From Botryllus schlosseri (taxonomy: Eukaryota), in contig CM119372.1 of assembly GCA_051294905.1 (NCBI GenBank), positions 15,254,001 through 15,318,000 on the forward strand: 64,000 bases of DNA. Reading direction: 5' to 3'. The translations under genes and the position numbers were made by a program. Shown here in pieces: positions 28,413 through 58,805 of this stretch; the first letter of the stretch is position 1, and each line of letters starts with the position of its first letter. The notes beneath the pieces were generated by a model. It searched no databases. It saw only the letters and a list, made by a program, of their open reading frames with translations, and was not told the origin of the DNA.

Positions 28413-30761
28413 AACAGTATTGCCAATTTACTTCGAAAATTATATGCCGCAGTGACGGTTAAATGACTATCATATAACCATTAAACATATGCAAACATTC
28501 GAATAACGATGGCATGCAAAATTGTTTCATTGTGGCACAGCTCGAATTATTCACTATGTATGAAAGATTGCCTTTCTAAATATCCTTCCTTTTTTCATGT
28601 TTTATCAGGTTTTATAACATGGACTCTCTAATAACCTAATATGTATGAATCATTCAAACACGACATATATCCCATCCTGTATAATTGAAATGTAGATAAA
28701 ACAATCGAAGTGTTGATACATCTTACTAATTTTGTCATTACACACAGTACTGATTACAAGCACACACATTCTGATTACTAATAGACAATGGTCATTCACG
28801 AAATTTAGGAAGTAGTCAAATATAGCATATGTCTAGTCTACATGCACTTCGTCAAGTATCCAAGGACTAGGACCTGCAGTCTTTCTTAATCATTTGTTCG
28901 ACCCAAGCAACTAAGCTACACTAAAATATTTTTAATTATTTACATCAATTTTACAACCAGACGATATATTTGCTCTGTCACAATATCATGGTATAATTCC
29001 AAAAATTGCATCAAATTGTGACTACATCGTGAAGATGCATATTGCTTCTTTCTTCCTGTATGCAACTGAATTGTAATTTGCAAATATTGTCCAATTCTAT
29101 CAATGTCAGGGGTGGCCAACCTTTTCGGCCAAAGAGCCACATAAGATTTACGAACCATTGCGCGGGCAACTTGAATGTTGATTACCTTTTTTAGTCGTCC
29201 GATAGGAACGATCCTAATGAGATAACATTAAAAACAAGACTTATATGACTACGCTTTAAAATTGATAACAATTATGTCATGAAATCTCCGTGTGCAACCG
29301 TACAGTGTGCACTGTGCACTCATCCCCGGATTGTCCTTGATCTGGGGATTATCAACGAAAAACTCAAATAGGTCCCCTTCTACTAGTTGGAATTGAGTCA
29401 AATTTGTTTTTCAGCGTATTTGAAGACAACTCAACAATTTCATGGGGTTGACAGAAAAATTTGAATTTTTTTTTCCTAATAAATTAAAAATTTCAATTCA
29501 AGATTGCACGACCTGATCATTTAGTCGAGTGAGATTTGGAATTTTTTTAAACAACCCTACTGTGCAGTGCTGAACTGAACTTTGCTCGTCAAAAGCCACA
29601 GCGTTAGTCGACGGATTAGGAAATCAACGTTACATGGTCGTATCTTTCTTTATTCCATCAAGTCGATTCGCCTAGTGATTAGCCTACTGATTAGCGTGAT
29701 CAGTAACGAATTACTTCTACTTTTTCGTAGTAGTTTTGCTCTACTTGTAGCTTTTACCCAAGTAAATCCTTCATAGAGCTATTTATGCATGACTCTTTTG
29801 TACTCCTTGCAGGGATGAATTGGTAAGTTCAGGGAATCCTGCATCACAGGAGTTGGTGATCAATTACAAAAATTAAAGCACTGAAGAACATTGCTATATA
29901 GAAATAGAATCATGAGATTCACGAACGAGCGGGAATAGGTAAGCCGAACCAAGAAGTAAAACATTTTTGTTTCTATTGGCTTATACGTACCAAAATCGGA
30001 ATAATTACATTTAAATATCAATGGATATTAGCGGTCTAGACGCGCCAAGAGCGAATTATTTATGCTCTTTAATAAATTGTCAATAATATACGTTTTCGCT
30101 TAGATTACTATTATTTTTTAGTCATGTCTCAGTCCACGTGATCAGATACACCAGTGGTGTTGAAGTGGGTGGTGTATTGGAAAATTTAGGGCACTTCTCC
30201 TGTACTACATTTACAATTTTCACACAAAAGATCGTGCTAATCGCGAGGATTTTTTGTTGCAAGAAATTCAGCACGTACAAACCAAAAAATCTCTCTGGTG
30301 GGTCGCGACCGAAATTTATACCCTTCGCCACCGTTTGGGCCGCGAACCCCTGCCCTATAACTTTCACAAGCCTTGAACTTGATTGGTGTGTAAGTAATGG
30401 ACTTTACGGAATGAGAAATTCAATGCTGTTGCTATAAAAACCAATACTTTTTAATAATGAAGAAGACACACTGACCGATTAGGCTATTTTTTACAGGAGC
30501 GCTAGGCTTATATATATCATTAATGTTTGTATGCAACCAATGAATAACTATTGAATAAATACAAATACATCCTTACATAGGCTCCGACTTTTATTTTTTT
30601 TACGAGGTGGCGAAGTCTTGTGACGTCATAATTGTTCCATATCGATGACGTCATCGTCGCACTAAAACGCACTTTACTACATGCTGCTGGTGTACCTGCA
30701 GCGTTAAACCATTCGTGTGACGTTAGTAGTTATGTAGATCGCTGGTGACCTGCGTGGGGTT

Positions 30762-31020
30762 CTTATGGCCCGCTCGCACGCGGCTGGGAAACTCGTATTG
30801 GCACGCGGCTCCTTATGTCTTATGGGCCCGCTCGCACGCGGCTATTGCGTCTTATGGCCCCTCTCGCACGGTAACTCTTTTCAGTATAGCGATCGCTCGC
30901 ACGCGGCTGGGAAACTCGTGTTGGCATGCGGCTCTTATGTCTTATGGGTCCGCTCGCACGCGGCTATTGCATCTTGTGGTCGCGCGGTAACCCTTTTCAG
31001 TATAGCTCGCACGCGGCTTC
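30762..31020. repeat. Subterminal tandem repeats with a GCTCGCACGCGGCT core, mirrored at 57238-57496
   Basis: Core occurs about every 60 bp, with a higher-order ~120-bp unit. Confidence 0.8.
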
Positions 31021-31630
31021 GTTGTTGGCATGTCGTACTTCGTGTTGAATATGTATCAAGTAAATAGTCATGTGATTGGTCCTTAGGTAATGTGTATATT
31101 CCAAATTACGGCGAGTACGACAATGATATATCGTTATTCTTATGGACGCGGCGATGATTCGTACTTTCAGGTATCTCTCGCGTGGTGTTGAATATGCACG
31201 AGTCACCAACAATAACCGCGCGGACGGAAACGTGGTTTGTTGTGAGGATTAAGCAGTGCGACCTATATTTCGAATGACCTGTGCGCTGAATTATTCCTCG
31301 TCCAGTCGCTACTATCGATTATTACACTATTCCATTCAGTGCGAAATAGTTTGATCGTAATTATGATATATGATGTCGTAGTTTAGTCGTATCAAATGAC
31401 CGATCGTGTTCTCTCTTTCCTCGCTATTGATTGCTAGCTGAATAATACTTTCGGCTTATTCGCTGTATCGCACCTACAAAATAATCTGCTGTTCACAGTC
31501 GCGACTTCACCGCGATAGCGCAATTTTCACACCTCGATCAGTAGAACAACACTGCACTAACCCAGTTGTCGAAACACATAGGTCATACATATTACGTGAA
31601 ATATTGTATTGTGGTATACAAATATGCAAA

Positions 31631-32242
31631 CTATTCTTTCAATTCAACAAGTCTAGTTAACGAATCGATTTTCAAGCGGCCGACACAGTTTTTAACACGA
31701 GTGAGTTGATATTTCTTCCCGGGTACGAGCGAGGCTTTGTTCCATTGACCCAAAACCACCTCGCCAGTATCATCCTTCAATGTAAAACTGTATAATTTCA
31801 ACTCCTTTCCGGCACCAGAATTGACCGTCTTCTCCTCTCGAGAAACACAAGTAGCGGCGATCGAGACGTATTCATCTTTATTTCCGTATACCGATTCACA
31901 GGTCAATAATGGGTATTCTTCAGTCGTATGTCTCGATTTTCCATGCAGAGTTACTGACGAAGCCCGTCCCAGTAATACAGCAGGTTTTCCAGTAAACTTG
32001 TCAATTTGGACCCAACCGGATTTGACCATGAGTTTTTTTCGTTTGGAGAATGCTTTCTCAATGACCCCGAACAATTCACGATTGAAACACGTGAAAGATA
32101 TCTCTTCGTTATTGCCGTCGATGAATATACCTTTGAGATATTGGCTAACGCCACCTCTTTTGGGTGATGAGACGAATTTGACGCCGACGTGAAAATTTGA
32201 AGTTGCTCCGACTTGCATAGTGTTGACGCTGTTCGATGTCAT
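31631..32242 (-). CDS. Tandem OB-fold, RPA-like ssDNA-binding protein, left-arm copy
   Basis: Intact 203-aa ORF; FIDGNNEEISFTCF and FTLKDDTGEVVLGQW resemble the LxDxxG-(I/V)xxxx(F/W) strands of RPA70 OB domains. Confidence 0.65.
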   Translation of the reverse strand: MTSNSVNTMQVGATSNFHVGVKFVSSPKRGGVSQYLKGIFIDGNNEEISFTCFNRELFGVIEKAFSKRKKLMVKSGWVQIDKFTGKPAVLLGRASSVTLHGKSRHTTEEYPLLTCESVYGNKDEYVSIAATCVSREEKTVNSGAGKELKLYSFTLKDDTGEVVLGQWNKASLVPGKKYQLTRVKNCVGRLKIDSLTRLVELKE

Positions 32243-35200
32243 ATCGTTTGATAAAGTGTCAACTTGAAATGTAACTCACTACACAAATCGAGTTGAATCG
32301 TATTTGAATGTATTGATTCGACCCAACTCAAATCCTTTGACAAATCCTATTAACGCGATCTGTTGAATCGAACGTAACCTGAATATTACTGACGCCAACA
32401 TTCACCCGCGTCGGATCATTCACACATTCCACGCCGCTGTTTTAACACTTATAGAATCAATACCAACTATCTCTAACCCGATAATATTCAATCATTTTGG
32501 TAATTTGCCAACTTTAAATCCATTCGCGGGATGTACTAAAGGTAAATCCAAATAATCCAGATTGAAATATTTGGACTTTGACATTGCGTGAATTGAAATA
32601 GGTTTGACAAACATGACTACCAACTTTCACCCAGTCACATTTCAAGATTATACTTTGAAACAATCCTTGAAACTGACAACTCTATTCACGACTCCGTTTC
32701 CGTTTGTAAAATAGAGTTTCAGAAATACTATCACTATGACAACTCAACATTTTAACATCTCGCCATGCACAAACGAGTAAAATACAAAAACCTTGGTAAG
32801 TCAATCCGTTTGTAGTAACTCACCAAACCAAAACAAAAAGTGTCCGTATGAAAGTAGACAAGACTACGCGAGTAATCACTACAACCCACAAACATACCAA
32901 CTCAGTTGTATCCATGTCCCATATTTTTTTTTATTCAACTGCAAGATGAAGTAATTACTACTTGGCGCGCGGTTTGAGATTAACACATTACATTTGAGTA
33001 TACGAGATTTGAATGTCCGACCAACGTAGTTGAGAATTCTTACAATCGAACGCAGGTGTTATATTGAAAATTTTCACGAATTGACACATTGATTTTGACA
33101 TATGAGATTTTGTAATAGTCGATCATGACTTGATTATTAAATTATGACATTATTAGACCAGGTTGTGTTGAAGGTTATTACGATACCAACAAACTTTTCA
33201 GAAACATTGTTATTAACATATCGATTTGTAAAACTAGATTAACATGTCTGAAATGTTTTGATTGGGAAGATTAAGCCGTGTTCGTAAAAACCACGCAGCG
33301 TATTGTGGAAATCAGGAAATAATTTACAAATGTAATTGTCTCCAGTAACCAAGACTAAAGATGAAACAACAATTTTCTTTGTTGAACAATAACCGGTACA
33401 ATACTTTATCGTCGTAATCTGCGGTGGGAATTGAAACACTTTCGCACATTTCCCGGTGTCAAGATATCACACTAGGTGAATTGACATATCGCCGCTTGAT
33501 TAATGCTTAATCCGTTCGCGCCATTTCACACACTTTGATCATTACAAAAAACAAATTGGAATATGTTTGCTAGATGCATTCAATTCAGTTAGAAATGTCT
33601 GGTACACAACAATCGTAATATCAATGAAGTACTTGCTACACTGTAATTCACTTAACGTGTTTTGCATTGTTGTTCATTTGTAGTATTGATTGTTTTTGAA
33701 CCCCCAAATAATAATTCCCCGACATGAAACCAAACCGCTGAAAGTCGTTACCATCACAACGAAACAATTTGTACGATGTTTGCCAAATGTATCCTATAGT
33801 TAGGTGTACTAGAATTATTTGTCTAACACATACACCGACAATACAATCGAAAATTTTTCCGTTGTCATTCACTAGAGTAAATGTCATCACAATACTCTAT
33901 CACTAAAAGACGTTACTTGTATGTGATTGAATCCCTAACAATTATCTCACTAAACCGAACTCCAAAGAAATTTTACTCACTCGACGGATATGAAACAGCG
34001 TCGCTTAATAGGTCTATATCGTTTTTCTAAAGGTAAATCATATCCATCCAATAGAAAACAATTTTCGGTACTAGTGAAATAAGTACCCGGAGATTACTAC
34101 GGCAATAGTTGCTGCATCAGAAAGTGGGTGTGTTGTAGGATTGGAAGTGTTGCACATATACATTGAATTAAGGGTGGAAGAATCACTAGGTCTAGTAAGG
34201 AACAAGTGAAAAAAACCACCCTGCCATATGAATAGCACGGGATCAAATGGGAGAGAATCGTAGAGTTATGAGTTGTCGAGAAAAACGACGTTAGCCCCGC
34301 ACATGGCGGTAGGGATCTGATAGTCCACACATGTTGTGCTGTTTGCCTACGCATATCTACGCAGGCCGTCAAAGAAGGACATACAATGTACTGCGCTTGG
34401 TCCCGTCAGGGGCAGTACACAAATGTCACACGAATAAACACCACAAGCATTTCCGATGAGACACCTGAACAAAATAGACCAAAACGTCAATATTCGAGCC
34501 ACAAGCGGTGCTATTGTAGCGATCATGGTTCCAGCCGCGGTTCCATCGTCTGGACCGCTCAGTTCTGGTAGAATAAAATCATCCCAAATTAATACCCCGG
34601 TTCTGACCGAGCTACGTAGAATGTCAAGTCCAGTATTAAAAGCGCGGGTGCGCAATACGTTCGAAACTGAGCCCTATACGCAACCAATCCGTGTAATCAA
34701 TCGTCTCGTAACAACAACTCAACACCATGACGAAGTGCCTGACACAATACAAGTGGCCAGAAAAATCGAAACGAACAACTACGTCACAAGCAAGAAACAC
34801 TTCAGCACCAGGGCGGACTATCATACCCGAGATCAAGGTCGGAAGGTAAGTACCAAATTAACCAGATTCATTTCGTCAGGGGATGGCCAGAATGTTCCAA
34901 CAACATTGGGCCGAAACGACGTGACGGAGAGCTGGACGCCAACTGCGAACATAATATTTGCGACGATTAGACCAGGGACCAAATAATAATAATAATACTA
35001 TTCGCAACGATCACAGCACATAACATAGTGCTGAGAATATCGAGTTGGTCCAAGTACTGCAAAAACAGTACTAGAAAATATATTAGGGGTGTTACTCGTC
35101 GTAATAACCAGTAAACGTAAATAACAGCTATTGCTTTGCAGGACAAATTAAAATCGTCAATAATAAAGACGAAATAATTGAACTAATGAATTAATAATTG

Positions 35201-38200
35201 TATTTCTTGAAGGTGGGGGAGATTGTTGGTGTTAATTTTATGTCTGTCCACCGTCTGAGCGATATTATTTTCAACTATGGAAGCTTTGAAACCTCCATTT
35301 GCCACATCGCAACATATTAAGCATTCAGTACAAAGCTACGCAATATGCACGTTATTGGAATGGCATATCTATGAAGACGTGTGTGTTCACACCACAGTCT
35401 GACGATCACTTTTTGTCAAAGGTGAACGCACACAGTGGGAATGTGCACTTTTGAATCCAAATTGAAATTAGCTGACATTATAATGTAGAATTGCGTGATC
35501 TAACAAACCGCAAAGTTACGGAAAACAATAGCTTTGAATGCTCACGGAAAATATATCTGTTGCAGCGGACTTTGCTTGACGAATATGCTAATAAATAGAA
35601 AAATCTTGAAAGGCCCGCTGAACTAATAGTGACTAATAGTGACTAAGAAGTAACCCCACCAATGTCTACCATACTGGTCCCCCAAACATTCGGTAACTTA
35701 CTGCTTTATCAGTAACTCGTGAATTCTAACTATTGGCTAGCGAGTGAATAGTTGTGGCTAAAAAGTATTAACAGCAATTCTAAATTGTTATCATGGTCGG
35801 TGTTGTAAGCTGCATGAATGCAGGTGGTTATGCGTGCATACCGCATCACCATTTGCATTAGATCTTTCGGAACCAGTGGGTAGGTTTTTGTGTCGGGTGA
35901 GTTGATTTTCCAACACTTCTGTCAATTTGGTTTTTACAACTACTGCTGTCTAACGACACGAAGTGAATACCGCTTGTTTCGCGGCTTTGGTTTAGTATAA
36001 GTAAATTGCATTACACAATGCGCTACATCGTGCATTCGAGTACACAAAGAAGAGTGGTAATTCTGACATATGTCAGTAACAAAACAGTATGTACATAGCA
36101 CCAGTCACGACTGCGCGTAAGATCAATAATTGAATTAAAGTACCGATTTCCACAAAAATTACCGGAAATCTCTTGTGCGGTGCAGGCAGTTATGAATAGG
36201 TATTCTGTTGAAAGGCCATAAAGTAGTATAGCTCAAAATGGTAGAATGCGAACTATCAACAACTTACCCTTTGCAGTTTAGGCAAAAAAGTACATGGTTT
36301 TACAATAACAATAACTAGAATTAATATGCGTGGTGTCGACCATATTTTGAATTTGAACTGTGCAGATTCCACACACATTGTAAATGTATTATGTATACTA
36401 TAGCAACATTTGCGCCTGTCACGAGAAAAAAGGTACATTTTGGAATAGCTGAATAGAGGGGTAGTTGCGCTTGGCATGGATTGTCGGGGTTGTGTGACGG
36501 CGGATTAGTGCGGGCGTGCGGTTGCGTCGCGCATAGTGGGTTCTGTCGCGTTGAAGTTTTCCGGCCGTGGAAAGATTTAATGTTCACCAAAATCTATTGA
36601 AGTCTAAATATAGATTTATCTTCGAATATTGGAACGGATAAATAACAACACCATTAACCTACTGAATTAGTCTACCTTGGTAATTGATGTTGTATTATGG
36701 TGCTCGACAGAAGGGGCTTTGTACCTAAATGTTACGTGGCAAGGAAGGGTTCAGTCGCCTAGCATTCCGTGGGTGATTACCGCTGTCGAGCCCACCGGTT
36801 TGTTGCTCGCTGTCTTTCGATTGGCGATGGTGGCGTGGTTAGAGATACCCAAGTCCTAACCTCCTTACGACCCTTTGAGAAGTTACTGAACCTCGTGACA
36901 GATTCTGCGGACAACTTGCCCCAAACAGGAGTGTTTTCCGCTAAATTGTAGAACTTGGATTGACTAATAATGTGTGAAAGGACGATATTGTGAGTCAAAA
37001 TCATACACATATGATGATAACTACACTATATACACGAAAAACCACGTTTTGAACGAAGTAGGTTTTAGTAGTTTCGGGCGCTAGGGAGTTAACAGTGCTT
37101 GTTACAAGTATAACATCGGTTTTTTAACAAATGGAGAAGTTTTTTTTTTTTTTCGGCTCTGGTTAAGCCTGTGGAAAGTAAATTTAATTCGCGCGAACTG
37201 GCCGAAGATTGCGGCTTGCGTAACAAGCGCAAATGCGAATTGCAGAACAAGCAAAAAATGTGAATTGCGTAATGAGTAAAAATTAAAAATTACATAACTA
37301 GCAAAACTGAGGATTGCATAACAAGAGGAAAAATAATTGATGTAACTGAGGAAGTTGCGGATTGGGTAATAGAGCCAAGTGCTGTTTATGTAATGCGTCA
37401 ATATGCGAATTTGGAATCAAATTGCGAAATTTTTGCAAAATAATTTTGCAGAAGGCGGTGGGAATTGCAATGTTGTAATGGCATAATGACGCGCAGGAAA
37501 CTATTAACTATTAACTATAGCGAAATGGTGCGATCTTGCTTAATCACAGTATAATCACTCCATAGGACGCCTTATAGGGGCAAAAAATTTGCTTGATGAA
37601 TGTTCGGATGTGCGTCAGTCCCTACTTTCCGAAAATAATTTATCGCTCGTAAAGATGGGGGGGCGGATGCAGGCATGTCAACGATCTTCCGCTCATAACT
37701 GAATATAACTCGAAGCGTAAGAACAGAAAATTCAGTTCACCCTACATAGAGCTGAACAGCATGAAGAGTCTAGAAAGTTAGCAGGGTTTGAAAAGAAGTT
37801 GACTAAGATTAATGACAAGTTAGTCAAATCTTATAGACAACAGCATTGCGACATTTAAGGATGGTTTTTAATTTGGTTTAGCAAATTATTTGTCTCTTGG
37901 TAAGTCACCTAAGATATTACAACCCTCGTTAATACGTGATGTTATCAGTTGTATGATCCTATGCCACATAGCTATAGGCAGGGGCTGTATCCGACCCCTC
38001 ACGCAAAATCACCTGGCCCAATACTTTGATGATACAAGATTATGACCACCATTTTATCATTCAAACGGACGTCATAGAACAAAAGAGGTTGAAATAGGTG
38101 ATGGAGAATATCTGGGCGGAATATAATATATCAGTGCTGACTAATCGAGTGGAATGAAGGATAATTTTAATATAATTTTGTCCCTCTAACCGAATCGTCA

Positions 38201-43070: not shown

Positions 43071-43175
43071 ATGTATAGGTTAAACCGTGCTTTGTGTTAT
43101 AATTGATGAATGATGTGTATGCCAATTTAACCAAGCTTTGCATAGGGTTACCTCATTTCCGTCTGCATGATAATT

Positions 43176-43782: not shown

Positions 43783-43790
43783 AGAGTACT

Positions 43791-45620: not shown

Positions 45621-45748
45621 TTGATCCGGTAAATCAGCTCCCAGATAATTTATTACCCCCAACATACAAAAACTGTACATAACTCTTCTTTACCCTTATT
45701 TACATTTCTTGATACGCCGGATGACCCATTACAGCCCGATTTACGGAA

Positions 45749-46045: not shown

Positions 46046-46384
46046 GCATAGTAATTGGGTTGAAAACACCGTCTAATGCAATTGAAGATATGTCTTTAGT
46101 AACTCTACATGATGGGATCTCATGAGATCAACGGGACGGAACCAAAGTCGGAAGCAGTCCTCGCGACACTGTAACCGATGATGGGGTTGATGGAAGCTGC
46201 AAATCAAATAAGCGTCGAGCCGGCACGCTGGCCATCGCCGCTGGCTGTTGCCGCTGGCGCAAGTACCGAGATGGTAATCACCACTGGTGCGAACGACGAG
46301 TTGAAAATAGCAACTAACGTCACACAGAACCCATGGGAAACTATTGGTGTTGAGACAGGAATGCCTGCTAACACCGTTAATGAA

Positions 46385-46654
46385 GACGTCGAGCGTGGAA
46401 TCCCCGCTGGCGTAAATAAGGACCTGCACGAGAAAACTGGTCCCGAAGGCTCTTGCGGATGCACTTGTCCGGATAACTGTAAAGATCCGGCCCATAGATG
46501 CATGGCGACTGCCACAGCTGACATCGAACGAAGAATGTCCGCTGGCGAAAATAAAGACCTGCACGAGAAAACTGGTCCTAAATGCTTTCGTGGATGCACT
46601 TGTCCGAATTACCTTAATGAATCGGCCCATAGATGCATGACGACAGCCACAGTA
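46385..46654 (+). repeat. Two 135-bp in-frame repeats encoding a Cys/His-rich 45-aa unit
   Basis: NKDLHEKTGP...GCTCP...AHRCM occurs twice within ORF 46178-46906. Confidence 0.8.
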
Positions 46655-46949
46655 ATGAGTACTTTCCCAAAAGGTTCAAACGAAGCAGCGATTGCCGGTC
46701 AACCGGATATACACCCGGTCATGTCCGACAAGGAGTCTGGGGATTTTAGGATGCACGTCTCCCCAGAAAAAGGGTCCCCGGCGGAAAAGGAGTCCGTCGG
46801 CGTGACGGTAGGTGCGGGCACGCACCGACATCAGAGGCCTACATCGAAGGACCTCGCCCTCTCTCCACCAACAACAGAACCCCGTTCATCACGAGATTCC
46901 CATTAGCCAATGGCTGGCCAAGTTACCACAACAAGGGACCAGTCCAAGC

Positions 46950-47444
46950 GTTAAGACGGAACTCAAGAGTCTCATCATCGCCATGATCTTTGTAATGACT
47001 CAGTGGATGGATATCATCCCTGGGAAGGAATTTGCGGCGTCATTAAAAAGAAAATGGGGATGCAAATGAGAATTGAAGAAATCACGTACGTCATGAAAAG
47101 GTGCGACAGAGCAATAGTCTCGAAAAATGGATTGGCGGCCGCCCATGGACATACAAAGGGGACGCCTCCTCAATACTGTAAATATGAAGGTAACGAGATA
47201 TTGTACCCACATGACGACTGAAAACAATGCAAGACAGATAATGTCAGCAGGCATTGAACGAATGAACAGGAGATTCGTTCATTTGAGCAAAACGATAACG
47301 AAGAGAAGCAAAACAAGGAATGTGGTAATTTGTATGAAAGCAGCCGATATAAGGAATAAAGGGCTCGTGCTGCTGCAATCAAACGTACAAGAAGTGGTGT
47401 TGTGCGAAGGCCCTATACCACCCACGATCATACAAAAGATGTAA
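46950..47444 (+). pseudogene. kptA: Tpt1/KptA-family RNA 2'-phosphotransferase (ADP-ribosyltransferase fold) domain with about two frameshifts
   Basis: Joined frames give ELKSL..RH..DGY...AAAHGH...LY-HMT...IMSAGIERMNRRFVHLS...G...S...VVL...IPP, matching the LRH, DG(W/F), ANQGHS, LYHGT, MxRxHVHLS and VPP motifs in order. Confidence 0.8.
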
Positions 47445-49254
47445 AGCTGCTTTTGGCAGAGTGTAAATATGTGATATAATAAGGGTGAACGGACAAAAAT
47501 CCCTTTAATGGGAGCAAACGGACAAAACTGAAACGTCGTAACTAGAAAAAATGCTGAGTCAGCATTTTTCTATCTCGTGCGGAAAAACGAGAGAACAAGA
47601 AGAAAAAAGAATAAGTGATAGAATAAACAAGGAGATTGAATTAAATGATCATGGGGAAACATGATAGATGACGTCAATCATTCACACGAGTGAAGCGGGC
47701 ATATAGTTCACTAGTTCCCAATTTTCACTAGCTTGGTAATGAAACCGAAGTCTTCATTCGATATTTTGTTTGTGTCAAATACTTTGTAATAAACACATTT
47801 GAGTGGTTGAGCTTTACATCATCAAGCTGTCATCTGTAAATCGAGATCACATCCGACTTGTAACTGTATCGTTTACCTAACCGAGTTGTATGCACATTGC
47901 ACAGTTTCATATTTTTATCATTTAGTGATTGCTGAACATACCAAACGATACACATTCACTTCCGAAATACTGCGTTGATCTCAATTCCCTTTGTCGTGAT
48001 AACCGAAGTACATTTGTTTCGAATTCGTAACAGCCGACTTTTCTATGACACGATAAATTTTGACAAGTTATGCTTAGAAGATTGGTTGCATATCGCGAAA
48101 AATAACATACTGCTCATATTGATACTGTTAATCGGTATTTTCACGCGAGTCGATTTTCAAATGAGTAAAATTTATTACATGAGTTTCTCCGCTTAATGTA
48201 AATGAAAACTCAGTCGTCTTTTAACATCACAAAGACATTGATAAAAAGTAAGCAATCAAACACAACACTTTGTACGACACTGATTATTGTTCCACACATC
48301 TCATTTCATACTAAGTGTATACGAAAGATATTCATGTTACACGAAAATATTCGCTCATGCTACAAACCTGTACAATGATTGGTGGTGTAAGTCCAGCACA
48401 ATTGTGGTATCCATACGAGTTTAGTTAACACAATTTACGACACCGAGGTCGCCTCATCTTTCGTAAGACAACAAACCAAGGCTTCAGGATATGTCCATGT
48501 CATAACAATAAATCAGCTACTCCAACAACAGAGTACATATGTTTTCTAGCACGGTGCTTACATCTTACACACAAATCAACCTACTTTGCTAACGAAAAGT
48601 GCTGAGTCATCACATGGTTGTCCTCACAACAATACAACTAAAACATACTATCATACAAAATGGCCGTTATAGTTTGCACACCAACGATACATCGTACAAG
48701 TAGCAAGTCTCGAGAATCCAGTTATTCAAAAAACGTGAAAGTGTTTCTACACCAAGTCGGTATGTTGACGAAAGCATAAATTGTAATATCGTGATCGATT
48801 TACATTCGTTGGTCACAAAATGTCACTACTCTAAATAATTATTTTTCACTCAAAGCCTACTTGTCACCATTCGTTTCATCAAGCACGAGTTCAAGAAACC
48901 TGCTACGACATGAATTGTTATTTTTATGTTGTGTAAATAGGTAATAATTAATTTTAGTAACACTATATCAACATCATCGAGTTGCGCGAATAGATTTACA
49001 TGCGGTCTTGTGGTTTTAGTCGAAGTATACAGCACGGTCTAATGTAGAGTCATCTCTACTGTACAGCAACTCGGTAATCGAAATGCATTAAAATTTAAAC
49101 AACGATCTTGTTTCGTCGCACCAAAAATATGTTTACTATCGCGATACTCTGCACAGGCCGTGTAAATCCTTTTCACACTCGTAATAGTATACCAACAGCT
49201 ACCGGCGACAACGTTTAACAATACCAACAACACTAAACATACGATACCTACCCA

Positions 49255-49810
49255 AGTAAAATTACCATTTTCACCTAGAGGTCGGTCGTTACCCGAGTAG
49301 AAATACCATTATCCTTTGGAGATTTGTCGTTTACCCAGTGTAACAAACCCCTTTTCCTTTGGTAATCTATTTTTTCTCTGGGTAACAATCCTTTTTCACT
49401 TGGAAATATATTTTTTCTCTGGTTAACAAACCTTTTTCACTTGGAAATATATTTTTTCTCTGGTTAACAAACCTTTTTTCACTTGGAAATATATTTTTTC
49501 TCTGGGTAACAAACCTTTTTCACTTGGAAATATATTTTTTCCCCGGGTAACAAACCTTTTTCCCTGAGCAACAAACCATTTTCACTTGGTGATCCGTCGT
49601 TTACCCGAGTAAAAATATCATTTTCTTTTGGAGATCCGGCGTTTACCCAGTGTAACAATACATTTTCACTTGGAAAAATACTTTTACCTAGAGTAACTAA
49701 TCATTTTCTCCTGGGTAACAAACCCTTTTCGTCTGGAAACTATCATTTACCTGAGTACCAATACCGTTTTCACTTGGAAATCTATCTTTTCCCCGGGTAA
49801 CAATACCATT
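49255..49810. repeat. 41-42-bp tandem repeat array in the left arm
   Basis: Unit TTTTCACTTGGAAATATATTTTTTCTCTGGTTAACAAACC, degenerating towards both edges. Confidence 0.85.
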
Positions 49811-50789
49811 TTCGTTTTGAAAACTGACAACCACACCGGTCAATTTGATATTTTTTGTATATTGTTACAACAGACAGCGACAAAATATACACCAACAACG
49901 ACTCCGATACATTTGTCTAATCAAATCTTCACTTGTTCTGGTGCATCCCATCAAAATCGACGGTTAGCCACACACACACACACGCACACACAATACCAAT
50001 GCACTATTTCGATATGACTGCGATGTCCGGGTTCGTGCTTTAGATTTTCCAGAACCAATCCGTCTAAAGTTGTAATCCCCCCGCCTTTGTTAACTGGTTG
50101 ATACACGGATAACAATCTTCGGAAAATGTAGGAACGCATACTACCCATCGTGCTAACGATTCCAGGTTACTTGTGATTAATTTCCTTGCTCACCCTATAC
50201 AGATTATACGTACAGCGATATGTAGTGGTAATCGGTTTGGTCAATACATATCGCCCCATTCAGTATGGAATTACAAACCCAATACAGGTCAGTTCATAAC
50301 CGGATCCGGATATTCAATGCAAAGCGATAAAGCAGAACCAATTACCAAATGTAATTAAACATGTAGATTCACAACCCTTGATTTTTTTTTCGTGAAAAAT
50401 GACAATACATATCGAATATATATTTTACGATGGTTCAACCCTGCCAAGTATTCACGTAAATGTGGTTTATGACATTACATACAATGTATCAGTGTATCAA
50501 TGTTGGGTGTTTATGCACACATCGGTATGACCCATAGACAATATCATCATACCCTCCAGGACTTCGTTATTGCATCGTGAGGTCAATAAAATCAATCGGT
50601 GGCATAGACGACAGAAGGCTTGGAGATCCAATGTAAAATTCAGACAAACAAACGGATATATTTGTCCATCTTGGTTATTCACTCAACTACCATTGGTGCT
50701 CTCGATACAGCGAACGGTACAGTATGCAACGCATATCATTCGAGTGATATATCCACAGATAAATATGGGGCCTGGCCACAATAATTGTA

Positions 50790-51128
50790 CGACGCCGACA
50801 AATCGATGCACGCAAGGTGTGGTTGATAATAATTGTTTCATGTGTCAAAGAGACAGCACTCTCTCGTAAAGGTTATCAGATCCCACAGAAACACACCTTG
50901 GATTACATTATCAAATCGATTTTAAACTTAAACCGAATCACTGGTGTTGAGAGTAGTGATATCCGATTTTTTGAATATTCATATCAACTTAGTGAACGAT
51001 CGGTAACGACACTTATCATAAACATTATGAATATTAGTAATTCCAGTCGTATCTATCTTGTGTTGTTACAAGTTGCTAAAACCATCGAGTGAATCAGTGA
51101 ACGGATAGTAATCTGGGTTAAATCTCGA
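50790..51128. other. Unique 339-bp spacer (loop) of the giant palindrome
   Basis: Symmetry (x pairs with 101918-x) ends at 50789/51129. Confidence 0.85.
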
Positions 51129-52107
51129 TACAATTATTGTGGCCAGGCCCCATATTTATCTGTGGATATATCACTCGAATGATATGCGTTGCATACTGTA
51201 CCGTTCGCTGTATCGAGAGCACCAATGGTAGTTGAGTGAATAACCAAGATGGACAAATATATCCGTTTGTTTGTCTGAATTTTACATTGGATCTCCAAGC
51301 CTTCTGTCGTCTATGCCACCGATTGATTTTATTGACCTCACGATGCAATAACGAAGTCCTGGAGGGTATGATGATATTGTCTATGGGTCATACCGATGTG
51401 TGCATAAACACCCAACATTGATACACTGATACATTGTATGTAATGTCATAAACCACATTTACGTGAATACTTGGCAGGGTTGAACCATCGTAAAATATAT
51501 ATTCGATATGTATTGTCATTTTTCACGAAAAAAAAATCAAGGGTTGTGAATCTACATGTTTAATTACATTTGGTAATTGGTTCTGCTTTATCGCTTTGCA
51601 TTGAATATCCGGATCCGGTTATGAACTGACCTGTATTGGGTTTGTAATTCCATACTGAATGGGGCGATATGTATTGACCAAACCGATTACCACTACATAT
51701 CGCTGTACGTATAATCTGTATAGGGTGAGCAAGGAAATTAATCACAAGTAACCTGGAATCGTTAGCACGATGGGTAGTATGCGTTCCTACATTTTCCGAA
51801 GATTGTTATCCGTGTATCAACCAGTTAACAAAGGCGGGGGGATTACAACTTTAGACGGATTGGTTCTGGAAAATCTAAAGCACGAACCCGGACATCGCAG
51901 TCATATCGAAATAGTGCATTGGTATTGTGTGTGTGTGTGTGTGTGTGTGGCTAACCGTCGATTTTGATGGGATGCACCAGAACAAGTGAAGATTTGATTA
52001 GACAAATGTATCGGAGTCGTTGTTGGTGTATATTTTGTCGCTGTCTGTTGTAACAATATACAAAAAATATCAAATTGACCGGTGTGGTTGTCAGTTTTCA
52101 AAACGAA

Positions 52108-52663
52108 AATGGTATTGTTACCCGGGGAAAAGATAGATTTCCAAGTGAAAACGGTATTGGTACTCAGGTAAATGATAGTTTCCAGACGAAAAGGGTTTGT
52201 TACCCAGGAGAAAATGATTAGTTACTCTAGGTAAAAGTATTTTTCCAAGTGAAAATGTATTGTTACACTGGGTAAACGCCGGATCTCCAAAAGAAAATGA
52301 TATTTTTACTCGGGTAAACGACGGATCACCAAGTGAAAATGGTTTGTTGCTCAGGGAAAAAGGTTTGTTACCCGGGGAAAAAATATATTTCCAAGTGAAA
52401 AAGGTTTGTTACCCAGAGAAAAAATATATTTCCAAGTGAAAAAAGGTTTGTTAACCAGAGAAAAAATATATTTCCAAGTGAAAAAGGTTTGTTAACCAGA
52501 GAAAAAATATATTTCCAAGTGAAAAAGGATTGTTACCCAGAGAAAAAATAGATTACCAAAGGAAAAGGGGTTTGTTACACTGGGTAAACGACAAATCTCC
52601 AAAGGATAATGGTATTTCTACTCGGGTAACGACCGACCTCTAGGTGAAAATGGTAATTTTACT
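52108..52663. repeat. 41-42-bp tandem repeat array in the right arm (inverted copy)
   Basis: Reverse complement of 49255-49810. Confidence 0.85.
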
Positions 52664-55600
52664 TGGGTAGGTATCGTATGTTTAGTGTTGTTGGTATTGT
52701 TAAACGTTGTCGCCGGTAGCTGTTGGTATACTATTACGAGTGTGAAAAGGATTTACACGGCCTGTGCAGAGTATCGCGATAGTAAACATATTTTTGGTGC
52801 GACGAAACAAGATCGTTGTTTAAATTTTAATGCATTTCGATTACCGAGTTGCTGTACAGTAGAGATGACTCTACATTAGACCGTGCTGTATACTTCGACT
52901 AAAACCACAAGACCGCATGTAAATCTATTCGCGCAACTCGATGATGTTGATATAGTGTTACTAAAATTAATTATTACCTATTTACACAACATAAAAATAA
53001 CAATTCATGTCGTAGCAGGTTTCTTGAACTCGTGCTTGATGAAACGAATGGTGACAAGTAGGCTTTGAGTGAAAAATAATTATTTAGAGTAGTGACATTT
53101 TGTGACCAACGAATGTAAATCGATCACGATATTACAATTTATGCTTTCGTCAACATACCGACTTGGTGTAGAAACACTTTCACGTTTTTTGAATAACTGG
53201 ATTCTCGAGACTTGCTACTTGTACGATGTATCGTTGGTGTGCAAACTATAACGGCCATTTTGTATGATAGTATGTTTTAGTTGTATTGTTGTGAGGACAA
53301 CCATGTGATGACTCAGCACTTTTCGTTAGCAAAGTAGGTTGATTTGTGTGTAAGATGTAAGCACCGTGCTAGAAAACATATGTACTCTGTTGTTGGAGTA
53401 GCTGATTTATTGTTATGACATGGACATATCCTGAAGCCTTGGTTTGTTGTCTTACGAAAGATGAGGCGACCTCGGTGTCGTAAATTGTGTTAACTAAACT
53501 CGTATGGATACCACAATTGTGCTGGACTTACACCACCAATCATTGTACAGGTTTGTAGCATGAGCGAATATTTTCGTGTAACATGAATATCTTTCGTATA
53601 CACTTAGTATGAAATGAGATGTGTGGAACAATAATCAGTGTCGTACAAAGTGTTGTGTTTGATTGCTTACTTTTTATCAATGTCTTTGTGATGTTAAAAG
53701 ACGACTGAGTTTTCATTTACATTAAGCGGAGAAACTCATGTAATAAATTTTACTCATTTGAAAATCGACTCGCGTGAAAATACCGATTAACAGTATCAAT
53801 ATGAGCAGTATGTTATTTTTCGCGATATGCAACCAATCTTCTAAGCATAACTTGTCAAAATTTATCGTGTCATAGAAAAGTCGGCTGTTACGAATTCGAA
53901 ACAAATGTACTTCGGTTATCACGACAAAGGGAATTGAGATCAACGCAGTATTTCGGAAGTGAATGTGTATCGTTTGGTATGTTCAGCAATCACTAAATGA
54001 TAAAAATATGAAACTGTGCAATGTGCATACAACTCGGTTAGGTAAACGATACAGTTACAAGTCGGATGTGATCTCGATTTACAGATGACAGCTTGATGAT
54101 GTAAAGCTCAACCACTCAAATGTGTTTATTACAAAGTATTTGACACAAACAAAATATCGAATGAAGACTTCGGTTTCATTACCAAGCTAGTGAAAATTGT
54201 TTTCTATTGGATGGATATGATTTACCTTTAGAAAAACGATATAGACCTATTAAGCGACGCTGTTTCATATCCGTCGAGTGAGTAAAATTTCTTTGGAGTT
54301 CGGTTTAGTGAGATAATTGTTAGGGATTCAATCACATACAAGTAACGTCTTTTAGTGATAGAGTATTGTGATGACATTTACTCTAGTGAATGACAACGGA
54401 AAAATTTTCGATTGTATTGTCGGTGTATGTGTTAGACAAATAATTCTAGTACACCTAACTATAGGATACATTTGGCAAACATCGTACAAAATGTTTCGTT
54501 GTGATGGTAACGACTTTCAGCGGTTTGGTTTCATGTCGGGGAATTATTATTTGGGGGTTCAAAAACAATCATTACTACAAATGAACAACAATGCAAAACA
54601 CGTTAAGTGAATTACAGTGTAGCAAGTACTTCATTGATATTACGATTGTTGTGTACCAGACATTTCTAACTGAATTGAATGCATCTAGCAAACATATTCC
54701 AATTTGTTTTTTGTAATGATCAAAGTGTGTGAAATGGCGCGAACGGATTAAGCATTAATCAAGCGGCGATATGTCAATTCACCTAGTGTGATATCTTGAC
54801 ACCGGGAAATGTGCGAAAGTGTTTCAATTCCCACCGCAGATTACGACGATAAAGTATTGTACCGGTTATTGTTCAACAAAGAAAATTGTTGTTTCATCTT
54901 TAGTCTTGGTTACTGGAGACAATTACATTTGTAAATTATTTCCTGATTTCCACAATACGCTGCGTGGTTTTTACGAACACGGCTTAATCTTCCCAATCAA
55001 AACATTTCAGACATGTTAATCTAGTTTTACAAATCGATATGTTAATAACAATGTTTCTGAAAAGTTTGTTGGTATCGTAATAACCTTCAACACAACCTGG
55101 TCTAATAATGTCATAATTTAATAATCAAGTCATGATCGACTATTACAAAATCTCATATGTCAAAATCAATGTGTCAATTCGTGAAAATTTTCAATATAAC
55201 ACCTGCGTTCGATTGTAAGAATTCTCAACTACGTTGGTCGGACATTCAAATCTCGTATACTCAAATGTAATGTGTTAATCTCAAACCGCGCGCCAAGTAG
55301 TAATTACTTCATCTTGCAGTTGAATAAAAAAAAATATGGGACATGGATACAACTGAGTTGGTATGTTTGTGGGTTGTAGTGATTACTCGCGTAGTCTTGT
55401 CTACTTTCATACGGACACTTTTTGTTTTGGTTTGGTGAGTTACTACAAACGGATTGACTTACCAAGGTTTTTGTATTTTACTCGTTTGTGCATGGCGAGA
55501 TGTTAAAATGTTGAGTTGTCATAGTGATAGTATTTCTGAAACTCTATTTTACAAACGGAAACGGAGTCGTGAATAGAGTTGTCAGTTTCAAGGATTGTTT

Positions 55601-56015
55601 CAAAGTATAATCTTGAAATGTGACTGGGTGAAAGTTGGTAGTCATGTTTGTCAAACCTATTTCAATTCACGCAATGTCAAAGTCCAAATATTTCAATCTG
55701 GATTATTTGGATTTACCTTTAGTACATCCCGCGAATGGATTTAAAGTTGGCAAATTACCAAAATGATTGAATATTATCGGGTTAGAGATAGTTGGTATTG
55801 ATTCTATAAGTGTTAAAACAGCGGCGTGGAATGTGTGAATGATCCGACGCGGGTGAATGTTGGCGTCAGTAATATTCAGGTTACGTTCGATTCAACAGAT
55901 CGCGTTAATAGGATTTGTCAAAGGATTTGAGTTGGGTCGAATCAATACATTCAAATACGATTCAACTCGATTTGTGTAGTGAGTTACATTTCAAGTTGAC
56001 ACTTTATCAAACGAT

Positions 56016-56627
56016 ATGACATCGAACAGCGTCAACACTATGCAAGTCGGAGCAACTTCAAATTTTCACGTCGGCGTCAAATTCGTCTCATCACCCAAAA
56101 GAGGTGGCGTTAGCCAATATCTCAAAGGTATATTCATCGACGGCAATAACGAAGAGATATCTTTCACGTGTTTCAATCGTGAATTGTTCGGGGTCATTGA
56201 GAAAGCATTCTCCAAACGAAAAAAACTCATGGTCAAATCCGGTTGGGTCCAAATTGACAAGTTTACTGGAAAACCTGCTGTATTACTGGGACGGGCTTCG
56301 TCAGTAACTCTGCATGGAAAATCGAGACATACGACTGAAGAATACCCATTATTGACCTGTGAATCGGTATACGGAAATAAAGATGAATACGTCTCGATCG
56401 CCGCTACTTGTGTTTCTCGAGAGGAGAAGACGGTCAATTCTGGTGCCGGAAAGGAGTTGAAATTATACAGTTTTACATTGAAGGATGATACTGGCGAGGT
56501 GGTTTTGGGTCAATGGAACAAAGCCTCGCTCGTACCCGGGAAGAAATATCAACTCACTCGTGTTAAAAACTGTGTCGGCCGCTTGAAAATCGATTCGTTA
56601 ACTAGACTTGTTGAATTGAAAGAATAG
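56016..56627 (+). CDS. Tandem OB-fold, RPA-like ssDNA-binding protein, right-arm copy
   Basis: Protein identical to 31631-32242. Confidence 0.65.
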   Translation: MTSNSVNTMQVGATSNFHVGVKFVSSPKRGGVSQYLKGIFIDGNNEEISFTCFNRELFGVIEKAFSKRKKLMVKSGWVQIDKFTGKPAVLLGRASSVTLHGKSRHTTEEYPLLTCESVYGNKDEYVSIAATCVSREEKTVNSGAGKELKLYSFTLKDDTGEVVLGQWNKASLVPGKKYQLTRVKNCVGRLKIDSLTRLVELKE

Positions 56628-58805
56628 TTTGCATATTTGTATACCACAATACAATATTTCACGTAATATGTATGACCTATGTGTTTCGACAACTGGGTTA
56701 GTGCAGTGTTGTTCTACTGATCGAGGTGTGAAAATTGCGCTATCGCGGTGAAGTCGCGACTGTGAACAGCAGATTATTTTGTAGGTGCGATACAGCGAAT
56801 AAGCCGAAAGTATTATTCAGCTAGCAATCAATAGCGAGGAAAGAGAGAACACGATCGGTCATTTGATACGACTAAACTACGACATCATATATCATAATTA
56901 CGATCAAACTATTTCGCACTGAATGGAATAGTGTAATAATCGATAGTAGCGACTGGACGAGGAATAATTCAGCGCACAGGTCATTCGAAATATAGGTCGC
57001 ACTGCTTAATCCTCACAACAAACCACGTTTCCGTCCGCGCGGTTATTGTTGGTGACTCGTGCATATTCAACACCACGCGAGAGATACCTGAAAGTACGAA
57101 TCATCGCCGCGTCCATAAGAATAACGATATATCATTGTCGTACTCGCCGTAATTTGGAATATACACATTACCTAAGGACCAATCACATGACTATTTACTT
57201 GATACATATTCAACACGAAGTACGACATGCCAACAACGAAGCCGCGTGCGAGCTATACTGAAAAGGGTTACCGCGCGACCACAAGATGCAATAGCCGCGT
57301 GCGAGCGGACCCATAAGACATAAGAGCCGCATGCCAACACGAGTTTCCCAGCCGCGTGCGAGCGATCGCTATACTGAAAAGAGTTACCGTGCGAGAGGGG
57401 CCATAAGACGCAATAGCCGCGTGCGAGCGGGCCCATAAGACATAAGGAGCCGCGTGCCAATACGAGTTTCCCAGCCGCGTGCGAGCGGGCCATAAGAACC
57501 CCACGCAGGTCACCAGCGATCTACATAACTACTGACGTTTTAATACTGGCCCTGCACTCATTAATATCAAAACATGCAGTCGAGTTATTAAATGGAATCT
57601 TTAAACGGTACGATCATTCGAAAGTGTAACTGCAGCCTGCGCTACCAGTCCGTCCGACGGAATTCATCGATCAAAAATCAGATTTTACGTCACTGAGAAT
57701 CTGGAATTGCATCAATGTTATTCACTTCACGCGCAACACGCCGTGTGAGTAACGAAATACACTACGCACTAGCCTGCCAATTAATATACGAGAACTCTGG
57801 AATATTTCAAGCAGTCAATAATGATGATTAAAAACGCGAATTCGCGCACCCATCAGTAATTGTCTCTTGCGGTTTCTTGGCTTGCTTCGCGTTGACCAAC
57901 TCGCATCGCGGCAATTATTGGCAGATTAAAAGAGCGATTTGGGCGGCATTTGTGCATTTCCGATTTACGTTCACAAAGCATTTCGGGAGTACATCGGTCA
58001 TTTCGTAAATTCAATTTGCATGTCGACGGCCGCCAACACGTACTGATTGAATTACGTCTTTACGTATTGACTGCCGCAGGTTGGCCACCACTGGGCTAGA
58101 ATTAATTCCACTTCCGGGCGCATGCCGCGATCTTATCAATAGAAATCCACTGTGTACCTAATAGTTTAATATTCGATATTGTTGTTCACGATACGAGTAC
58201 ATCCAGCAATCAAGTTTACCGGAATGTAGAAGGTGCCCTGCTCGAACGAATCGAATAAAATCAAAATTTGTGCCACCCAGGATCTTGTGATGCATCAATA
58301 TTTGATAATGGCATGGCATGACCATTCACGTTAATAATGAAAGGAACACTGAAAAATGACTTTGTGCGACAATTTCGGAGTACGAATGTATCAAGTAGAT
58401 AACGAGAAATATGGATACCGAAATGGCAAACGAGAAAGCGTGTATAATGAGTATCGCCACGAATGGGTTTGAGTCTGACACCGTATTGAGTAGCTTTCGT
58501 TGCGACAATTGTTTTCTCATTATATCGATGTTTAAGCTGTATTGCTGCATTTCCCGAATAATGTCACTGGCAAAACATTGTAGAGAAACTAATCTGCGCA
58601 GAAATGAATTCCAATTTGCAGGCACACGCCAACACACCATTCAATTTCGCGATCCGATTACCAAGACTATCACGAAGCTAGCTAGCTCACGAATGGTTTT
58701 GTAAACGAATACGAGCGCACATAATTTAGATGTCAGAAAGGCAGAACGTCTATTTGGGCGCCTGATCGGGAGAAGAGATCCAGGGTGGTGCTTCTCAGCA
58801 CAGGC

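Follow-up and report, generated by a model that had tools for sequence, protein, structure and literature searches.

The question raised by this locus is how a 13-kb hairpin with the ends of a Maverick/Polinton came to be inserted in the genome of Botryllus schlosseri. We analyzed a stretch of 64,000 nucleotides of contig CM119372.1 (the window), which contains zero N. Read directly in the sequence, the element begins with AGTAGT at 30725 and ends with ACTACT at 57533, and it is flanked by a perfect 6-bp target site duplication (TSD) (Table 1). Self-comparison gave two inverted matches, 30720-34066 against 54192-57538 and 47719-50789 against 51129-54199; the inner ends are 339 nt apart. Inverted complementarity runs over nearly the whole length of the element around this short centre, and the inverted repeat makes up 97% of the element once a nested insertion is removed. 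A preliminary description had reported these termini, the GACGTT duplication, 6405-bp arms around a 339-bp loop, at least three substitutions between the arms, and an insertion in one arm only. All of this held, and a position-by-position count put the substitutions at exactly three (33686/54572, 33767/54491, and 49984/51934). Rfam and tRNA scans of 30000-58000 returned nothing.

Table 1. Features of the palindromic element; positions are those of the 64,000-nucleotide window
Feature	Position	Strand	Basis or remark
Left TSD copy, GACGTT (6 bp)	30719..30724	.	Same hexamer at 57534-57539
Terminal motif, AGTAGTTA-4 nt-GATCG	30725..30744	+	End alignment; common to palindromes and autonomous elements
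Left arm, outer part	30725..34066	+	Pairs with 54192-57533; 2 substitutions
Subterminal tandem repeats, periods ~32 and ~122 bp	30761..31014	.	Mirror at 57244-57498
Module 94% identical to subterminal region of autonomous P_C8	31127..32258	.	Mirror at 56000-57131
ORF214, left copy, orphan gene	31631..32275 (ATG form 31634-32242, 203 aa)	-	ORF list
8-bp duplication CAATTTTC, left copy	34059..34066	.	Flanks nested transposon
Nested 13,652-bp transposon, unrelated unclassified family, ends GGTACTAGTGAA / TTCACTAGTTCC	34067..47718	+	Outside palindrome
8-bp duplication CAATTTTC, right copy	47719..47726	.	Flanks nested transposon
Left arm, inner part	47727..50789	+	Pairs with 51129-54191; 1 substitution
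41-42-bp tandem repeat array	49340..49822	.	Mirror at 52105-52578
Unique loop, 339 bp, centre of symmetry	50790..51128	.	Spacing of inner arm ends
Right arm, 6,405 bp, uninterrupted	51129..57533	-	Self-alignment and substitution count
ORF214, right copy	56016..56627	+	Protein 100% identical to left copy
Right TSD copy, GACGTT (6 bp)	57534..57539	.	Perfect match to left copy

The insertion lies in the left arm, and its empty site is visible in the uninterrupted right arm. Each of its ends has at least 40 matches in the genome, and paired ends lie 11 to 12.4 kb apart. When the 614-aa, 243-aa, and 182-aa ORFs were searched against Pfam along with 27 additional ORFs in the insertion, only a Tpt1/KptA fragment was found. 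Long-read assemblers can generate inverted duplications, and a related locus, L044, is interrupted by 100 N next to a second axis of symmetry; both points favor a fold-back artefact of assembly. The window copy, however, has no N, sits inside a 40-Mb contig, and has a perfect TSD; one of its arms carries a transposon flanked by a separate 8-bp duplication, and a dozen other copies occupy unique sites. Furthermore, both arm/loop junctions were found in contigs of independent runs. Contigs of four public runs (four studies) cover the centre stretch; the left junction is bridged in three runs, and the right one is crossed by at least 30 nt in two. These contigs stop soon inside the second arm, and none among the pieces listed spans the whole 1.1-kb stretch. 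Taken together, we consider an assembly artefact next to impossible. The double-loop locus L044 (contig C15) resembled a terminus-to-terminus concatemer and was rejected as evidence because of the gap beside its axis.

What does the element encode? Pfam assigned no family to its ORFs, including the arm ORF. Searching the arms and loop by tblastn with all helper ORFs of at least 100 aa (E ≤ 1e-3) uncovered no remnant of a polymerase, integrase, ATPase, or capsid gene, and the two methods together gave no rve integrase match in the window element. Across the palindromes, tblastn matches were limited to repeat-derived ORFs of the terminal repeats, a 217-aa gene with an overlapping frame on the opposite strand, and a piece of the helper's right-end ORF that copy C8 carries in both arms. 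The earlier statement that the element has no polymerase, integrase, or capsid gene is thus correct for these genes but fails if read as gene-less. Each arm holds an intact frame of 203 to 214 aa, ORF214, so the element carries one gene, twice. ORF214 has 1 homologue among 5.8 billion proteins, and its dN/dS against the helper copy is 0.17; among the sampled copies, it is present in both arms of the window element, C7c, and C3c only. Its best matches in the ESM Atlas are OB-fold clusters (score, 0.95), and we take its product as a candidate OB-fold/RPA-like protein, a lead from structural comparison. An AlphaFold2 model of ORF214 made with no alignment had a mean pLDDT of 34.8 and was unusable.

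The preliminary description had proposed looking for partners that bear a polymerase and an integrase behind the same termini. Such elements are indeed present in this genome, with (AGT)2 ends and the terminal motif. One of them, P_C8, is autonomous, measures 16,496 bp, and has 770-bp terminal inverted repeats (TIRs), AGTAGT ends, and the TSD GATGCT. It encodes an integrase with an rve domain (E = 2.6e-16) and a chromodomain, shows a weak match to an A32-like ATPase, and has a candidate double-jelly-roll capsid (score, 0.98). A frame of 1,300 aa in P_C8 shares 97% identity with P0001, a protein with 99 homologues, 40 of which carry PF03175; in a polymerase search of the genome, the best 48 of 325 candidates were 91 to 100% identical to P0001. 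Searched directly against Pfam and PDB, the helper polymerase gave no meaningful match. Its PF03175-bearing homologues, together with motifs read by eye, point to a putative protein-primed polymerase (pPolB).

The arm shares about 1.1 kb of its 6.4 kb with P_C8, and the rest is without a match in the sampled autonomous element. The remaining ~5 kb is non-coding and, among the sampled elements, was seen outside palindromes only in C2b, a defective hybrid in which the arm is joined to a polymerase segment; ~5.4 kb is collinear with the left side of C2b. Since only 1.1 kb matches the sampled autonomous element, the arm does not look like simply one helper end, as it would be in a classical snap-back genome. 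The preliminary description had asked whether the loop is the helper's continuation of one arm. The loops have no similarity to C2b, and the window element's centre has no match in P_C8 or P_C4, so none of the sampled helpers continues into the loop. Whether it flips between copies is not definable because the element is symmetric.

We next consider the rest of the family. Among 15 elements sampled by DNA similarity, 14 are palindromes of 12.4 to 15.5 kb with arms of 5.7 to 6.7 kb. Intact AGTAGT/ACTACT ends and a perfect 6-bp TSD were found in 12 of the 14, and all 12 hexamers are distinct; the proposed search for further palindromic copies with different TSDs was successful. Besides GACGTT, there are 12 further hexamers, from the 11 other palindromic copies and C2b. 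The first 17 to 20 nt are conserved across the 12 palindromic copies, C2b, and P_C8, and ~45 nt can be aligned; ends and TSD length are common to the palindromes and an autonomous element of the same genome, at many sites. A slightly stricter form of the terminal motif, which the window copy's terminus mismatches at the last base, occurs 523 + 532 times in the genome (1,055), compared to 5 + 7 (12) for a control. Among the first 100 places listed, we counted 40 adjacent plus/minus motif pairs; 24 span 12 to 15 kb (17 of these 13 to 14 kb), and 5 span 16 to 18.5 kb.

These data bear on the original proposal, in which template switching gave rise to one snap-back defective genome and a single integration followed. 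That idea fits the architecture of the window copy taken alone, but it is refuted by the family. In addition to the 14 sampled palindromes, 12 with distinct TSDs, the loop occurs at least 40 times (the best 40 of 362 candidates are all full-length and at least 97% identical to the window loop), inner-arm matches fall mostly into plus/minus pairs (~18 pairs among 40 scored matches), and loops are homologous between copies. A one-time accident is thus extremely improbable. The window element is a member of a high-copy group of non-autonomous Maverick/Polinton-derived palindromes with loops of 0.3 to 1 kb. Our 14 palindromes are a sample out of probably hundreds, and the family amounts to roughly 1% of the genome, a figure extrapolated from motif counts and pair spans in which the share of palindromes comes from element sizes rather than from sequence.

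A foldback transposon from another, unrelated superfamily (FB/MuDR type, for example) would likewise have long inverted arms with tandem repeats inside them and hardly any coding sequence; its AGTAGT ends would then have arisen by chance. This origin is very unlikely: all 12 copies whose ends are intact have a 6-bp TSD, the terminal motif and the 1.1-kb module are common to elements with pPolB and rve integrase, the hybrid element joins the arm to a polymerase segment, and Pfam and tblastn found no other transposase in the arms.

How, then, are the arms kept alike? In the 14 copies, the arms differ by 2 to 51 substitutions per ~6.2 kb (0.03 to 0.76%; identity, 99.2 to 99.97%), a 25-fold range of divergence. 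In local alignments, the nearest sampled copy differs by 1.1 to 12% over only 60 to 93% of the arm, distances that are upper bounds given 14 sampled copies; for C9a and C8, no other sampled copy covers 60% of the arm. Global MAFFT distances between copies (3.7 to 20%) were inflated by non-homologous modules, and the local figures are preferred. In every sampled palindrome, the two arms resemble each other far more closely than any two of the sampled copies do. Where the arms of other copies differ by indels of 40, 41, and 82 bp, the indels map to the 41-42-bp array. The copies are mosaics of exchangeable modules, and the modules are mirrored in both arms, as seen for ORF214, the helper fragment of C8, and the centres. 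The centre of the window copy is common to C11b, yet it is unrelated to the centre of the window copy's closest relatives.

Gene conversion between the arms of large chromosomal palindromes is well known. It is conceivable that the palindrome arose once in the same integrase-dependent family and was spread by integrase-mediated cut-and-paste or ordinary copying, with intrachromosomal conversion keeping the arms alike. The high arm identity in 14 of 14 copies, regardless of subfamily, could equally result from conversion after integration, and no extrachromosomal, hairpin, or encapsidated form was seen in the data at hand, namely copies in the chromosomes and short contigs from public runs. However, close relatives differ in whole modules, yet the modules are always mirrored, and all 14 copies together have a single local patch of asymmetry (a 200-column window with 5% mismatch or more). 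The 13.65-kb insertion in one arm of the window copy was neither copied across nor removed, and the 25-fold spread is expected if divergence counts time since insertion. We consider conversion an unlikely explanation, if one to be taken seriously, and infer that symmetry was established prior to integration, probably through self-templated copy-back.

The reading we favor, and judge probable though far from certain on sequence evidence, is a helper-dependent palindromic satellite that is inserted in trans by the helper integrase and owes its symmetry to replication. Its observed part is that the element has helper-type ends and motif, entered the chromosome in one piece with a 6-bp TSD, and is without polymerase or integrase. 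In the proposed cycle, the protein-primed polymerase of the helper would also start replication at the ends of the palindrome. As it copied by strand displacement, the new strand or the displaced one would fold back on itself, and one arm would template the other by self-templated copy-back or hairpin repair. The helper integrase would insert each new copy as a fresh perfect palindrome, whose arms would then slowly diverge. The palindromes keep to a narrow range of 12 to 15 kb, and the helper measures 16.5 kb, which suggests that something limits their length, for instance packaging in helper capsids. Under such a constraint, the family would be a satellite or a defective-interfering lineage and not just a truncated transposon. 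A more far-reaching version is a self-perpetuating snap-back satellite of an active Maverick virus, copied by the helper polymerase, renewed by copy-back in each cycle, selected for size by the capsid, and carried into the germ line by the integrase; we put it forward tentatively and find it rather doubtful. From the snap-back satellite of the preliminary description, the Polinton ends, the snap-back build, and integration of the whole palindrome with a 6-bp TSD survive; the single accident and a loop that continues any sampled helper do not, and the match of the arm to the sampled autonomous element is limited to 1.1 kb.

Whether Mavericks/Polintons are viruses or transposons is still argued, and their replication mode has not been shown. 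Protein-primed strand-displacement replication and packaging predict three features that transposon biology alone does not: arms that are mosaic and mirrored, a narrow range of sizes, and ends of the helper type. The palindrome family is a natural substrate for testing the Maverick replication model. A full-text literature search found no description of a defective-interfering or satellite lineage of Mavericks/Polintons; this would be, to our knowledge, the first for this virus group. If the snap-back satellite is real, the genome holds both a fossil and a living record of defective-interfering DNA genomes, and long hairpins with a helper gene module might feed RNA silencing against the helper. 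A 13-kb palindrome per copy is also relevant to genome stability and assembly.

Several known systems resemble the palindromes in part. Foldback transposons such as Drosophila FB have very long inverted arms, tandem subrepeats, little or no coding sequence, and high copy number. FB-type elements have 9-bp TSDs and belong to another transposase superfamily, whereas the palindromes here have 6-bp TSDs, and Polintons are the partners that were found. Daniell reportedly described, in 1976, long inverted repetitions in DNA from incomplete adenovirus particles. Such DNA is a close parallel in that adenovirus is a protein-primed linear double-stranded DNA replicon related to Polintons, and its defective genomes retain the end with cis signals, with a repeated packaging domain near the terminal repeat (PMC5033970); unlike the palindromes, it is not known to integrate into the host germ line. 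According to Barreat and Katzourakis (2021; PMC8097293), animal Mavericks/Polintons have 5′-(AGT)2 // (ACT)2-3′ ends and perfect 6-bp TSDs, as the window element does; their core genes number eight, and their TIRs measure 46 to 1,447 bp, with a mean of 402. The window element differs in its 6,405-bp inverted repeat and in having no core gene. Snap-back or copy-back defective genomes share inverted complementarity, a short unpaired centre, the lack of replication genes, and the need for a helper, and they are described as transient products, known for the most part from RNA viruses or parvoviruses and seen in particles or infected cells (PMC13506859; for AAV, PMC8235507). Unlike them, the palindromes, known here from chromosomal copies, form a stable germ-line lineage of hundreds of copies that diversify and recombine and whose arm is mostly non-helper sequence.

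The palindrome in the window is a real feature. Its AGTAGT and ACTACT ends lie where the preliminary description had placed them, the GACGTT hexamers on both flanks are identical, and a repeat finder reproduced the inverted arms and the loop between them. A position-by-position comparison of the 6.4-kb arms, for which at least three substitutions had been claimed, found exactly three (33686/54572, 33767/54491 and 49984/51934). The insertion described in one arm is likewise present. Without it, the element measures about 13.15 kb, 97% of it palindrome, and its stretch of the assembly has zero N.

Features of the window element and its partner elements
Feature	Position	Size	Basis or remark
Terminus AGTAGT	start at 30725		sequence read directly
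Terminus ACTACT	end at 57533		sequence read directly
Target duplication GACGTT	30719-30724 and 57534-57539		both flanks
Inverted arm pair	30720-34066 / 54192-57538		repeat finder
Inverted arm pair	47719-50789 / 51129-54199		repeat finder
Loop	between inner arm ends	339 nt	repeat finder
Nested insertion	34067-47718	13,652 bp	left arm only; right arm is the empty site
C2b, non-palindromic hybrid (L027+L028)	G000:C2:29488846-29505437		
Polymerase frame of P_C8, autonomous helper		1,300 aa	

Four public runs, each from a different study, have contigs that fall on the central stretch of the element; contigs of three runs bridge the junction of left arm and loop, and those of two extend at least 30 nt into the right arm. 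Taken with the target duplication, the insertion in just one arm and the numerous relatives described below, these contigs rule out an assembly artefact. Of the sampled words of a loop-centred stretch (50400-51500), 0.59-0.81 occur in runs from 11 studies, and these runs comprise four coded organism labels and two seawater metagenome runs. The palindrome family may extend beyond one assembly or one species label.

The nested insertion is bordered by an 8-bp duplication, CAATTTTC, and its 12-nt ends are imperfectly inverted. Both ends match at least 40 places in the genome, in pairs 11-12.4 kb apart among the matches scored. This is an ordinary mobile element of a separate family, unrelated to the palindrome, that landed in one arm. 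Its 614-aa ORF (43776-45620) has no Pfam family. A 108-aa frame at 47118-47441 (plus strand) matches the C-terminal part of Tpt1/KptA, an RNA 2'-phosphotransferase (PF01885, E=4e-9), and could belong, as an exon, to a captured or cargo gene.

We searched the 495-Mb eukaryotic assembly that contains the window. The terminal 300 bp of the element gave at least 57 matches, mostly plus/minus pairs 12-17 kb apart (best 40 of 1,121 candidates); a 1.4-kb inner-arm probe gave at least 40, at 96-100%, again mostly in plus/minus pairs (best 40 of 2,512 candidates). Our sample of 15 elements consists of the window copy, ten terminal-probe pairs and four inner-arm-probe pairs. Fourteen of the 15 are palindromes, the window copy included, with arms of 5.7-6.7 kb; one loop measures 2.9 kb and the others 332-988 bp. 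In 12 of these 14, both termini (AGTAGT and ACTACT) are intact and the 6-bp duplication is perfect, and all 12 hexamers are distinct; the two others (C8c and C3) have no recognisable termini. The preliminary description had read the element as an integrated snap-back defective genome or satellite formed by template switching. It is a member of a family rather than a one-off product, and the palindromic copies with different duplications, for which a search had been proposed, do exist.

Loop homology holds inside subfamilies of palindromes, and the window's 339-bp loop has at least 40 full-length matches of at least 97% identity (best 40 of 362 candidates). A 20-nt terminal motif, common to most sampled ends, occurs 523 + 532 times in the genome, versus 5 + 7 for its reversed control. 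Among the first 100 places listed are 40 adjacent plus/minus motif pairs; 24 span 12-15 kb, 17 of these 13-14 kb, and five span 16-18.5 kb. Extrapolating from these element sizes, not from sequence, we estimate that palindromic copies number some hundreds and make up roughly 1% of the genome's DNA. One further locus (L044, G000:C15:14242301-14252300) contains the 339-bp loop twice, in direct orientation with 9.7 kb separating the copies, and the inner-arm sequence between them runs outward and then returns around a second axis. It resembles a terminus-to-terminus joint without the termini; a 100-N gap lies beside the axis, and this may be an assembly join.

The sole non-palindrome of the first sample, C2b, is 16.6 kb long, with 847-bp TIRs and the duplication TGTGAC. 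It contains a 958-aa frame, P0001, in which we read exonuclease and polymerase motifs by eye. P0001 has no direct match in Pfam or PDB; of its 99 homologues, 40 have PF03175, the organellar and viral type B DNA polymerase family, and the source annotation of some reads DNA-directed DNA polymerase. It has at least 48 matches in the genome, 91-100% identical (best 48 of 325 candidates), many with long uninterrupted frames. We retrieved two of these polymerase-bearing loci for analysis. One, P_C8, is 16,496 bp long, with 770-bp TIRs that are 98.4% identical, AGTAGT/ACTACT ends and the duplication GATGCT. It encodes an integrase (rve core, E=2.6e-16; chromodomain, E=2.5e-9), a P-loop protein with a weak poxvirus A32-like match, and a 432-aa protein whose nearest ESM Atlas clusters carry a double-jelly-roll-like domain (score 0.98, a lead only). 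Polymerase plus integrase define a Polinton in the available text of PMC5499653, and P_C8 is therefore one. It is also the autonomous partner with shared termini that the preliminary description had called for. Ends of (AGT)2/(ACT)2 with perfect 6-bp duplications are the signature of vertebrate Mavericks, whose TIRs are 46-1,447 bp and whose mean length is 16.9 kb, according to the available portions of PMC8097293.

P0002 (L029:3671-4705, minus strand), from the helper polymerase frame, has a C2H2 zinc-finger-like stretch (E=0.007) on the N-terminal side of the polymerase domain. Zinc fingers of PF00096 or PF13894 occur in many homologous polymerases (P0009-P0095) from echinoderms and cnidarians, and the sources list these polymerases as zinc-finger proteins.

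C2b is a hybrid. Its left ~5.4 kb is collinear with a palindrome arm. Fused to this part is helper sequence with a small ORF, the polymerase (its frame split in two) and the ATPase gene up to codon 62. C2b is either a helper/satellite recombinant or a relic of the palindromes' parent. Palindromes, C2b and P_C8 all keep the outermost 17-20 nt (AGTAGTTA, then four variable bases, then GATCG), and the alignable terminus is about 45 nt. Farther in, 31127-32258 of the window element is 94% identical to P_C8 beside the latter's left TIR. This module holds ORF214, an intact 203-214-aa frame, identical between the two arms. ORF214 has no Pfam family, and a search of 5.8 billion proteins found a single homologue; ESM Atlas gives a lead towards nucleic-acid-binding proteins of the OB-fold, RPA-like kind (score 0.95). 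It differs from the helper copy by 16 synonymous and 10 non-synonymous changes, and with dN/dS of 0.17 it is therefore a real gene of this element group. Among the 14 palindromes it is found in the window copy, C7c and C3c only. The other ~5 kb of the arm is non-coding, includes an array of 41-42-bp repeats and, among the elements compared, has its only collinear counterpart in C2b, within that element's left 5.4 kb. Apart from the ORF214 module and a right-end fragment in the palindrome C8, no helper protein is detectable in arms or loops, and scans of the window element turned up no Rfam family or tRNA. As the preliminary description had it, we found no polymerase, integrase or capsid gene in the palindrome.

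The palindromic copies are mosaics. Local alignment puts the nearest sampled copy at 1.1-12% divergence over just 60-93% of the arm; C9a and C8 have no sampled partner covering 60%. The window copy differs by 0.05% between its own arms versus 1.1% from C7c over 81% of the arm. Its mid-arm is like C7c and C3c; over the central 1.5 kb it resembles C11b (96%) and shows no relation to the C7c/C3c centre. The arms of C8 (L021+L022, arm positions 808-1080) have, in the place that the helper's left-end gene occupies in the window copy, a fragment from the right end of the helper, so satellite lineages took up different helper ends. Each of these modules is present in mirror image in the two arms.

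Arm-to-arm differences amount to 2-51 substitutions (0.03-0.76%) in all 14 palindromes. Larger indels of 40, 41 and 82 bp reflect changed numbers of 41-bp repeat units, one of 261 bp adjoins an assembly gap, and only one window of 200 columns, over the whole set of 14, has as much as 5% mismatch. With 14 copies sampled, the main rival, that conversion between arms after integration keeps them alike, is in our view less likely and still has an appreciable probability. We favor restoration of symmetry before integration, which would yield mirrored mosaics and a 25-fold spread of arm divergence between copies, as if counting time since insertion.

How might this work? The window element has no polymerase or integrase and has helper-type ends, and it and at least 11 relatives were inserted whole with a helper-type duplication. 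The helper integrase would act in trans on ends common to helper and palindrome. Jump-back initiation is a feature of protein-primed replication in adenovirus and phi29, and the tandem AGT-AGT at the extreme end would fit it. On a palindromic template, the nascent strand beyond the loop is self-complementary and could use its own first arm as a template; another route would be for the displaced strand to form a hairpin, with its mismatches then repaired. By either route the palindrome would be perfect again when it integrates. The palindromes fall in a narrow size range, near but under that of the helper, which suggests a limit on length from packaging or replication; non-autonomous transposons of the ordinary kind tend to become shorter.

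Searches of openly accessible full texts turned up no account of non-autonomous Polintons of palindromic or snap-back form, and the available portions of two reviews (PMC6431247 and PMC5499653) do not mention them. The window element has the end motif and duplication of Polintons and the properties of a non-autonomous derivative. It is not a Polinton proper, because the core genes (polymerase, integrase, capsid) are absent and its TIR is too long, more than four times the maximum of 1,447 bp reported in the accessible part of PMC8097293. Foldback transposons are alike in form and unlike in duplication length and partners. The link to the helper fixes the superfamily of the palindromes. The element probably behaves as a snap-back defective genome or satellite does, as defined in the available text of PMC13506859, and as a snap-back type it compares with the AAV snapback genomes described in the accessible part of PMC8235507.
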